Of a DNA stretch of 12,053 bases, positions 3,208 through 5,876 are shown one piece after another. The position numbers were made by a program, and so were the translations under genes. Source of the DNA: a virus (Duplodnaviria; Heunggongvirae; Uroviricota; Caudoviricetes); IMG/VR virus record IMGVR_UViG_2850808358_000011; one strand, given 5' to 3'. Under the pieces are notes generated by a model. That model saw only the letters and a program-made list of their open reading frames with translations. It was not told where the DNA came from and ran no database searches. Positions within the stretch are counted from its first letter, which is position 1. Each line of letters begins with the position of its first letter.

Positions 3208-3519
3208 ATGAAATCTGACATCAGAAAAGAGATTATTAATCGTCTTATCCGTGATTACAACTTCAAAGAAGAAAATAACTACCTTCGGTATGGTGTTTGT
3301 CCGCAGTGTGGAAAGAAAGAGCTGTTTACCAGCCTTGAAAGGCCGTACATCGTACACTGCGGGCGTGAAAATAAATGCGGTACAGACCTGCTGACCAAAG
3401 AACTTTACCCGGATGTGTTTTCATCATGGTCAGATCGTTATATCAGCACGAAAGATGAGCCATATGCAGCGGCGGCAGCTTATCTTCAGGAAGCGCGCAA
3501 TATTGCTGTGGGCCACTGA
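3208..3519 (+). CDS. Primase N-terminal zinc-ribbon segment (CPQCG...HCGRENKCG); probably the 5' part of the downstream primase gene, separated by a 1-nt frameshift
   Basis: ATG 3208 with GGAG 8 nt upstream; Cys-x2-Cys...His-Cys...Cys motif; frame stops at 3517-3519, but the downstream gene's frame is open from 3375. Confidence 0.6.
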   Translation: MKSDIRKEIINRLIRDYNFKEENNYLRYGVCPQCGKKELFTSLERPYIVHCGRENKCGTDLLTKELYPDVFSSWSDRYISTKDEPYAAAAAYLQEARNIAVGH

Positions 3520-3578
3520 AGGGCGCATTTACTCAGGAGCGATACCAGGACAAGGAAAACGGCGAACAGGCCGCTACT

Positions 3579-5876
3579 GTGCGTTTTACGCTGGCTGACG
3601 GCGTGTGGTGGGAGCGCATCATAGACCGACCGGGACGCTTCGCGCGCAAGGCGAATTTTTCCGGCAGCTACAAGGGGTTGTGGTGGGCTTATCCGGGAGC
3701 AGATTTAAGCAAGGCCAAAGAAATCTGGATTTGTGAGGGCATCTTTGATGCCATCAGCCTTAACCAGAATGGCATTGCGGCCGTTTCTGTCATGTCTGCC
3801 GTGAACTACCCTGATAAGGCGCTGGAAGAGCTGGCGAAGCTGTGCGGGGATAATCCCCGTCCGGTTATTGTGTGGGCCCTGGATAACGGGCGTGCGGGTG
3901 AACGTTACGCGAAAAAACATGCAGAACGCAGCGCCGAAGACGGCTGGAGAACGGCAGCGGCGTTGCCAGGTAAAAACAACAATAAACGCGACTGGAATGA
4001 TTTACACATCGCCGGAAAGCTGCGTGGCCATGATGTGAAAAGATACCGTTATTACGGTGATTTATTGCTGGCGAAATCTCCAAGAGATAAGGCACTAATA
4101 ATGTTTTCCTTTCGTGAGCGGAAGGAATTTCATTTTACTTTTGATAACCGTGTTTTCTGGTTCAAACTGGATATTGAGCGCCATATGAAGGCTGTTGAAC
4201 GCGTCATAAATGAGCGAAATGTTGACGAAGATGAAGCTCGCAAAATTGCACTTAAGGAATCCGGCGCTGTAAAAGAAATCGCAAACTGTAACCCGGCGCC
4301 GCTTTATTACATTCGAAACAATGACACGGATGAAGCATGGTATTACTTCCGTGTTACGTTCCCGGATGGTGCTACGGTGAAAAACACCTTTACATCAGGA
4401 CAATTAACATCCGCATCTGAATTTAAAAAACGCCTGTTGCATGTGGCAAAAGGCGGTATTTATACCGGAACGACTGCGCACCTTGATGCATTAATAAAAA
4501 ATGACCTTCCCGCAATAAAAAATGTTATCGGTCAGGATTTTATCGGATACAACAAAGAGATTGGCGCGTGGCTGTTTAATGATGTCGCGGTTTGTAATGG
4601 TAAAACCTACGAAATCAATGAAGAGGATTATTTTGAAATTGATGGCATAAACGCAAAACCATTGAATAAAAAACCAATATTGCAGATTAACTATAAAAAA
4701 CCGGATGAATTTACAATATCCTGGGTGGAAGATCTCTGGCTGGCGTTTGGTGAAAAGGGAATTATTACCCTGGCCTTCTGGCTGGGTTCGTTGTTCAGCG
4801 AACAAATCAGGCAGAAAAACGCATCTTACCCCTTTCTTGAGATTACCGGAGAGCCTGGAACGGGTAAAACAACACTGATTGATTTTTGCTGGCGTTTGTG
4901 TGGCCGCGACAACTATGAAGGTGTTGATCCAACCAAAGGATCGGAATCAGGCTGGAAGCGAACTTTTGGACAAGTCGCCGGATTACCTGTTGTTCTGATT
5001 GAAGCCGACCGGGGGGACAATGCGCAAAAAAGAGGTGCATTTGACTTTGATAACCTAAAAAGCCTCTATAACGGCGGTGGTATTGGGGTACGTGGTGTTA
5101 AAACTAATGATAACGCCACATATGACCCCGTTTTTAAAGGGGCTGTCGTGATTGCGCAGAATGCCACGGTAAGCGCCTCATCGGCAATTATCGAGCGTCT
5201 GGTACGTATATACACCGATAAAAAACGCCACTCACCAGATAGCCGACTGGCAGCAAAACGGCTGGAGCTTTACCCCGTTGAACAGGTATCAGGTTTTATC
5301 CATCGGGCAGTAAGCCAGGAGCGGGCGATTATGGATTTGTTTATGGCACTCTCGGATCCTGAAACAACCCGCCTTTACAGTTGCGAAAATATTCGCCATC
5401 AGCGTATTGCCAAAAATCACGCGCAACTAATTGCACTGGTCAGGGCGCTGAAATGCGTTATTGATATCCCGGATGAATGGCTTGATGCCACATGCCTGGA
5501 ACTGGAGCGAATGGCAGAGGAACAGGCTAAAGCGGTAATGGATGACTTGCCGGAAGTGATGGCGTTCTGGGAGGCGTTCGACTATCTGGACGGCATAACA
5601 GCATACGGCGTAAATCATTTTGGCAAGGGACGGCAGAATGAGTTTGCCGTCAGTATCCCGCAACTTGAGCAGGTTGCCGCCGTTCACCATGTGAAGATCC
5701 AAACCAATCCCGAAATGATAAAGCTTCTCAGGGCTGGCCGTTCTCGATCGCTGATTGGATACAAGTCCGTCCGTAGCGAGGTATCCAGACAGGCGAACGC
5801 CGGGAGGGGGATAGCCGAGGCCAAAGAGAAGGAGGTATTGAAATGCTGGATATTTAGTAACAAGGAGGGGGCTTAA
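3579..5876 (+). CDS. P4-alpha-type DNA primase/helicase (Toprim-like N-terminal region plus Walker A NTPase)
   Basis: 765-aa ORF from GTG 3579; WICEGIFDAISL and VIVWALDNGRAGE fit a Toprim primase core; Walker A GEPGTGKTT; size and layout resemble P4 alpha. The frame is open upstream to 3375, so the true protein probably continues from the zinc-ribbon segment. Confidence 0.85.
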   Translation: MRFTLADGVWWERIIDRPGRFARKANFSGSYKGLWWAYPGADLSKAKEIWICEGIFDAISLNQNGIAAVSVMSAVNYPDKALEELAKLCGDNPRPVIVWALDNGRAGERYAKKHAERSAEDGWRTAAALPGKNNNKRDWNDLHIAGKLRGHDVKRYRYYGDLLLAKSPRDKALIMFSFRERKEFHFTFDNRVFWFKLDIERHMKAVERVINERNVDEDEARKIALKESGAVKEIANCNPAPLYYIRNNDTDEAWYYFRVTFPDGATVKNTFTSGQLTSASEFKKRLLHVAKGGIYTGTTAHLDALIKNDLPAIKNVIGQDFIGYNKEIGAWLFNDVAVCNGKTYEINEEDYFEIDGINAKPLNKKPILQINYKKPDEFTISWVEDLWLAFGEKGIITLAFWLGSLFSEQIRQKNASYPFLEITGEPGTGKTTLIDFCWRLCGRDNYEGVDPTKGSESGWKRTFGQVAGLPVVLIEADRGDNAQKRGAFDFDNLKSLYNGGGIGVRGVKTNDNATYDPVFKGAVVIAQNATVSASSAIIERLVRIYTDKKRHSPDSRLAAKRLELYPVEQVSGFIHRAVSQERAIMDLFMALSDPETTRLYSCENIRHQRIAKNHAQLIALVRALKCVIDIPDEWLDATCLELERMAEEQAKAVMDDLPEVMAFWEAFDYLDGITAYGVNHFGKGRQNEFAVSIPQLEQVAAVHHVKIQTNPEMIKLLRAGRSRSLIGYKSVRSEVSRQANAGRGIAEAKEKEVLKCWIFSNKEGA

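Follow-up and report, generated by a model that had tools for sequence, protein, structure and literature searches.

An apparently split primase gene in a satellite-like island of Escherichia is most likely the product of a homopolymer error in one finished assembly

Primases of the type encoded by phiCTX, RSY1 and Smp131 share one layout, in which an N-terminal four-cysteine zinc ribbon is followed by a TOPRIM domain and then by a module that carries a Walker A motif. T7 gp4 occurs in a long form, which has a zinc-binding domain, and in a short form, which lacks it; translation of the short form begins inside the gene, in frame, at a start that has a ribosome-binding site of its own, and this arrangement is conserved. 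In E. coli, islands integrated between gcd and hpt carry an 889-aa primase (WP_001492716.1, WP_032235515.1) encoded by intact single ORFs. The gene analyzed here is the same gene at the same locus, with 90-98% DNA identity to these copies. It lies in a window (the whole 12,053-nucleotide stretch of DNA analyzed, in which all positions below are counted) that is an exact substring of GenBank CP026877.1 (GCA_002950035.1), a chromosome of 5.13 Mb. Unlike the phiCTX-type genes, it is housed in a satellite-like island of ~12.7 kb and not in a complete P2-like phage, and it is one base short as deposited. The island, which is integrated between gcd and hpt of an Escherichia chromosome, begins with a tyrosine integrase, a 346-aa hypothetical protein, an AlpA-like regulator, an Icd-like protein, four small ORFs and the primase, and continues with a second integrase-like gene, Ogr/Delta, a 236-aa coiled-coil protein, a P2-family capsid protein and a MazE/PemK toxin-antitoxin pair. 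A literature search for the accession gave no match.

To describe the gene product, we used the 889-aa protein that results when one G is restored to the reading frame, referred to below as the repaired primase. Its residues 3-887 aligned with positions 2-891 of the 895 positions of the PHROG profile phrog_1139, 'DNA primase' (E=9.9e-302), and tblastn comparison with phiCTX, RSY1, Smp131 and other P2-like phages gave matches in one piece, with 42-44% identity and 99-100% coverage. Among the matches listed of the 41 that tblastn found in the phage collection were phages of the phiCTX, Ralstonia and Stenotrophomonas types and no P4 record, P4 possibly being outside this collection. The 5' fragment of the gene encodes a predicted zinc ribbon of the form C-x2-C-x16-C-x5-C, and each of its four cysteines (C31, C34, C51 and C57) is at least 90% conserved in a set of 76 diverged full-length representatives. 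The TOPRIM domain scored well above the Pfam cut-offs (Toprim_2, 49.4 bits against 22.1; Toprim_3, 37.2 bits against 27.2). Pfam matches to P-loop families were all under the cut-off (DUF5906, E=0.017; NTPase_1, E=0.014), and the P-loop NTPase/helicase module is presumed from the Walker A motif. A sequence search of the PDB with the primase found no match. Judged by these sequence features, the gene is a replication primase of the phiCTX/RSY1 type, comprising a zinc ribbon, a TOPRIM domain and a putative P-loop module, and it belongs to a family that is well populated and already annotated. By analogy with DnaG and T7 gp4, selection of priming sites would fall to the zinc ribbon, primer synthesis to the TOPRIM domain and helicase activity to the P-loop module. 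The coordinates of these and other features are given in the table.

Table. Features of the primase region, and single-base homopolymer changes in the window relative to the same-lineage assembly QWSJ01000012.1 (direction of change, QWSJ01000012.1 to window)
Feature	Position in window	Strand	Basis or remark
Hairpin, 11 bp, G+C-rich	3169..3195	+	Terminator-like scan; separates the stop (3158-3160) of the preceding 99-aa gene from the start of the primase
Primase 5' fragment	3208..3519	+	103 codons + TGA; predicted four-Cys zinc ribbon
Zinc-ribbon Cys	C31 3298-3300; C34 3307-3309; C51 3358-3360; C57 3376-3378	+	Translation
Primase 3' part	3456..5876	+	-1 frame; first canonical start GTG 3579; residues 103-889 of the intact protein
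GGG run, one G short	3510..3512	+	GGGG in identical-haplotype relatives; GGAG in the more distant allele
TOPRIM domain	3720..4010	+	Repaired residues ~172-268; Pfam Toprim_2 E=6e-13, Toprim_3 E=4e-9
ICEGIFDA motif in TOPRIM domain	3729-3752	+	Sequence
Walker A motif GEPGTGKT	4848..4871	+	Repaired residues 548-555
T8 to T9	492-500		346-aa hypothetical protein becomes 168+193
G4 to G3	3510-3512		Primase 889 becomes 120+765 (120 = start at 3157)
G3 to G2	8818-8819		236-aa coiled-coil protein becomes 61+161
G5 to G4	10807-10810		PemK/MazF 114 becomes 69 aa

As deposited, the gene is read in two frames. Direct reading of the sequence showed that the 5' ORF runs from ATG 3208 through 103 codons to a TGA at 3517-3519, with the end of the frame reading ...GCT GTG GGC CAC TGA (protein end ...ARNIAVGH), and this is where an earlier note on this DNA had also ended the zinc-ribbon segment. 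The 3' ORF extends from GTG 3579, which sits 60 nt past the stop of the 103-aa fragment, to the stop codon at 5874-5876 (765 aa); it is in the -1 frame relative to that of ATG 3208, and entering it from that frame requires a shift of -1. The main primase frame had been described in the earlier note as open from 3375, which was wrong: stops are present in the -1 frame at 3372-3374 and 3453-3455, the frame is open only from 3456, and its overlap with the 103-aa frame is 64 nt (3456-3519) rather than ~145 nt. This error leaves the main point made there about the split primase untouched. The prediction that one added G would give a continuous protein of ~889 aa held up, in that insertion of one G at the GGG run at 3510-3512 creates ...EARNIAVGPLKGAFTQERYQDKENGEQAATVRFTLADG... 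and a product of exactly 889 aa, the sequence of which matches homologs.

Some gene callers choose a start for the primase at 3157, which results in products of 120 aa or 906 aa. Between ATG 3157 and ATG 3208, the sequence context favors the latter as the true start, because the hairpin at 3169-3195 is followed on its 3' side by a GGAG Shine-Dalgarno sequence; GGGGTGGAG precedes ATG 3208.

The form of the gene in its relatives was examined at several distances. A primase homolog was found in 70 complete E. coli genomes, 66 of which match the junction; the RefSeq set searched does not include CP026877.1 itself, and some E. coli genomes contain two or three related islands. All of these 66 span 162 nt for a 161-nt query, i.e., one extra base, and all have a single annotated CDS, "toprim domain-containing protein". 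Eight E. coli genomes are identical to the window over the 161 nt around the junction except for one G. Intact relatives (n=7 loci) read GTGGGGCCACTG at the junction and have a primase CDS of 2670 nt, encoding 889 aa; the nearest junction allele is GTGGGGCC (V-G-P) and a more distant one is GTGGAGCC (V-E-P). A single primase ORF, of 889 or 906 aa, was likewise present in all 17 further contigs that were fetched by way of neighboring proteins (7/7 and 10/10), and 40 of the 41 phage records match the repaired primase colinearly in one piece.

More remote relatives gave the same picture. The 76 diverged full-length representatives came from an exhaustive HMMER search in which the 103-aa fragment was the query; they are 838-964 aa long and have the zinc ribbon fused to the enzyme in every case. 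Their alignment is gapless over the junction, with conserved residues on either side (R97; Q110, T124-F127). Shorter matches to the fragment, from 70 to 700 aa, had a continuous spread of lengths, as expected of ORFs cut by contig ends, and rare genuine stand-alone zinc-ribbon genes may exist in distant relatives. A single frame of ~840-960 aa was found in every relative examined and is broken in the deposited window at 3510-3519. In no homolog is this position occupied by a conserved stop and start that divide two genes. These comparisons support one gene as the natural state of the primase and agree with the view, taken in the earlier note, of a single primase gene broken by the loss of one G.

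We then compared CP026877.1 with same-lineage assemblies. Its alignment with the draft QWSJ01000012.1 (GCA_003572525.1) comprises 17,003 columns and shows no substitutions and exactly four 1-nt homopolymer indels, each of which disrupts an ORF that relatives have in intact form. QWSJ01000012.1 was assigned to the same lineage because a derived nonsense mutation in the chromosomal yadG gene (E112 to stop) is common to both assemblies. The yadG lesion thus shows that real lesions of this lineage are reproduced from one assembly to the other, whereas the four homopolymer indels are not. Furthermore, two read-derived Logan assemblies with no substitutions relative to the window, SRR6049580 (9.3 kb overlap) and SRR8820628 (5.1 kb overlap), carry GGGG. 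Contigs found through AlpA belonged to other lineages, with flanks that were ~98% identical.

The GGG allele appears to be confined to the deposited sequence. The 765-aa product is recorded on one contig only, CP026877.1, where it forms a singleton protein cluster, and the 103-aa product has no record at all. Exact patterns of 40 nt and 21 nt that represent the GGG allele retrieved no related sequence from collections of genomes, metagenomes and viral contigs. One 21-mer match, in a Pseudomonas MAG, was rejected as a chance occurrence, as it has no homology beyond 22 nt.

From these results we infer a technical cause and consider it quite probable that the split is a homopolymer consensus error and that the real primase gene is intact. 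The GGGG run would have been under-called by one base in the consensus of one finished assembly, CP026877.1, and the GGG at 3510-3512 would be accompanied by at least three further homopolymer runs of wrong length in the 12-kb window. In the cell, the primase would most probably be encoded by an intact gene and made as one 889-aa polypeptide. This explanation is preferred to an evolutionary one because there are four frameshifts and zero substitutions, because the changes occur in one assembly only and because all of them are at homopolymers. What was found is the pattern expected of a consensus error, namely a one-base homopolymer change unique to one assembly, with several others nearby and without substitutions relative to assemblies of the same lineage. 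A sequencing error had been offered in the earlier note as the alternative to a primase without its zinc-binding domain, and both the same-lineage comparison and the uniqueness of the allele to CP026877.1 favor it.

The changes in the window can also be set against the consensus errors that are generally known from finished long-read assemblies, of which CP026877.1 may be one. As in such assemblies, they are single-base homopolymer changes, several per 10-20 kb, that give rise to apparent frameshifted genes, and they are absent from short-read-derived assemblies of the same haplotype. Unlike typical long-read errors, three of the four affect short runs (G3-G5), and no error was seen in ~12 kb of adjacent core sequence. 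The run in the primase itself (G3/G4) is shorter than those at which long-read homopolymer errors classically arise, which counts against an artifact. The region over which homopolymer errors in CP026877.1 were compared amounts to 17-25 kb. Should this chromosome contain a second related island, short-read polishing could have been hindered locally.

An alternative, which we regard as unlikely, is that the one-base deletion is genuine and recent, and that the primase is a pseudogene in a satellite prophage that is decaying. The gene would then give rise to the 103-aa fragment with the zinc ribbon and to no more than traces of a primase without it, and the island would have lost self-priming of its replication. 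The lesion is, after all, present in the deposited sequence, and decay of prophages and satellites is common. The distribution of the changes is also consistent with decay, in that all four indels are within the mobile island and none is in the flanking core genes (~12 kb), which include 4.3 kb of flank that was compared directly and the upstream genes from acnB to gcd (8.4 kb), which have canonical lengths. Under a uniform error rate, such island-only placement has a probability of ~0.07-0.3, which is not significant, though it fits island-specific decay. However, neutral decay does not look like this: four independent frameshifts and not one substitution over 17 kb, when the comparison is with an assembly of the same lineage that shares the yadG nonsense mutation. 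Even mismatch-repair-deficient E. coli accumulates several base substitutions per indel. Selection does not explain the four changes either, since one frameshift suffices to inactivate the element. Furthermore, the GGG allele was absent from the other datasets searched.

Shigella boydii provides an example of genuine inactivation of the same primase gene, and this, too, counts against an artifact. Its allele carries a CAG to TAG change at codon 121, 18 codons downstream of the break in the window, together with IS insertions, and it is reproducible, being present in two independent datasets (GCA_031665605.1; Logan ERR200303). Like the deposited window, it is truncated near the same place and has a 120-aa N-terminal product. 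Unlike the window, it has a reproducible substitution, IS insertions and the GGGG run, and is a real pseudogene. We considered whether the source of the window might be near this pseudogene lineage and rejected the idea, as identity in the flanks is only 97.4-98.6%. The S. boydii nonsense allele was turned up when the N-terminal 164 aa served as query in a word-indexed protein search, which returned only fragments and broken copies.

Finally, we weighed the possibility that the split is functional, with either a -1 ribosomal shift within 3456-3519 or separate production of the zinc-ribbon fragment and of a protein started at GTG 3579, the two then cooperating. Very little speaks in favor of this: the frames overlap by 64 nt, the GTG is 60 nt past the stop, and a primase-helicase without a zinc-binding domain, as T7 gp4 illustrates, can still work as a helicase. 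The product of GTG 3579 would, if the frameshift were real, resemble the short form of T7 gp4 in this respect, but in the window the start lies in a different frame, behind a weak ribosome-binding site, and none of the relatives is arranged in this way. Programmed -1 frameshifting was rejected because 3208-3519 contains no X_XXY_YYZ heptamer in the zero frame and because the two-frame layout is not conserved; it was found in none of more than 80 near relatives and in none of the 76 distant representatives. Transcriptional slippage was rejected because the run is too short: slippage or phase variation calls for a homopolymer of ~7 or more at the shift site, whereas the run here is 3 G (4 in relatives) and 3208-3600 has no homopolymer of 6 or more. 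Reinitiation at GTG 3579, which the earlier note had mentioned, is unsupported, because the Shine-Dalgarno sequence before this codon is weak (AGG only) and the arrangement is not conserved. A start at this codon (V125) would also lose residues 104-124, including the conserved F108 and Q110. We therefore consider a functional split of this kind to be very improbable. That the GGG is real and the 103-aa zinc ribbon and the 765-aa enzyme cooperate in trans as a naturally split primase, or that the island deliberately makes a helicase-only form, is scarcely credible.

Altogether, the apparent split of the primase is most likely not a real biological feature, and the finding is ordinary whether it reflects an error or a real deletion. 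Its value lies in a caution: a window of a genome deposited as "complete" contains at least four homopolymer changes, which lead to false split genes in the primase, two hypothetical genes and the PemK toxin, and pseudogene or "split gene" calls from CP026877.1 should not be accepted as they stand. Were the deletion genuine, the island would merely be one more inactivated satellite prophage, which is a common thing.

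When we compared the window with L011 (QWSJ01000012.1, an independent draft assembly of the same lineage as CP026877.1), we found that the site in the primase gene is accompanied by three further one-base changes in homopolymer length, each of which affects a reading frame (see table). These differences probably share a technical cause with the primase frameshift. The gene for the 236-aa coiled-coil protein, which lies upstream of the P2-family capsid gene, is also split, but differently, in another assembly, GCA_030346625.1 (L017), where speE and gcd are uncalled. This could be another error-prone assembly, or it could be a pseudogene-rich, Shigella-like genome. 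A run of nine G residues also lies in the intergenic region 3' of the 333-aa integrase-like gene, and two short-read-derived Logan contigs terminate there, with G10 in one of them. This run interrupts short-read assemblies, and its length could be variable.

Outside the window, downstream of hpt, a nonsense codon at E112 interrupts the chromosomal gene yadG, whose product is an ABC transporter ATPase. Because this codon is present in both CP026877.1 and the independent draft L011, yadG is a real pseudogene of the lineage. The island of the window also occurs in degraded form in Shigella boydii (L026 and L027), where the G run of its primase gene is intact and codon 121 is changed from CAG to the nonsense codon TAG. 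Two independent datasets, one assembly from NCBI and one from Logan, show this nonsense mutation. In this copy, an IS630-like element stands in place of the integrase, and the 3' end of the primase gene contains an IS3-family element.

Features in the window and in related sequences
Feature	Sequence	Coordinates	Details
346-aa hypothetical gene	window	492-500	T9 vs T8 in L011; 168+193 aa
Hairpin	window	3169-3195	ACCCCACTGCA/TGCAGTGGGGT
Second tyrosine-recombinase-like gene	window	5879-6880	333 aa; Pfam Int_N + Phage_integrase
G9 run	window	7134-7142	
236-aa coiled-coil gene and capsid gene	window	8639-10619	capsid protein 423 aa in relatives
236-aa coiled-coil gene	window	8818-8819	GG vs GGG in L011; 61+161 aa
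PemK/MazF toxin gene	window	10807-10810	GGGG vs GGGGG in L011; 114 to 69 aa
236-aa gene	L017	17470-18181	81+161 aa
yadG	L010	14987-15913	
Shigella boydii island	L026	10001-12376	
Shigella boydii island	L027	3688-6015	

Immediately 5' of the primase ribosome-binding site is a perfect, G+C-rich hairpin of 11 bp, which is followed by a T-rich tract and was scored as terminator-like on both strands in a terminator scan. It could be a terminator or attenuator that regulates primase expression.

The gene content of the island includes its own P2-family major capsid protein and Ogr/Delta, together with a primase of the phiCTX rather than the P4-alpha type; this small island lacks portal, terminase and tail genes. 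The capsid protein has an N-terminal extension of ~130 aa, since the Pfam match begins only at residue 133. The 333-aa integrase-like gene, which begins 2 nt downstream of the primase stop codon and is paired with the primase gene in all relatives, is additional to the island's own integrase gene, which adjoins gcd. Integrases of P88-like E. coli phages share ~84% DNA identity with part of this gene, for which one conceivable role is cross-talk with a helper phage.
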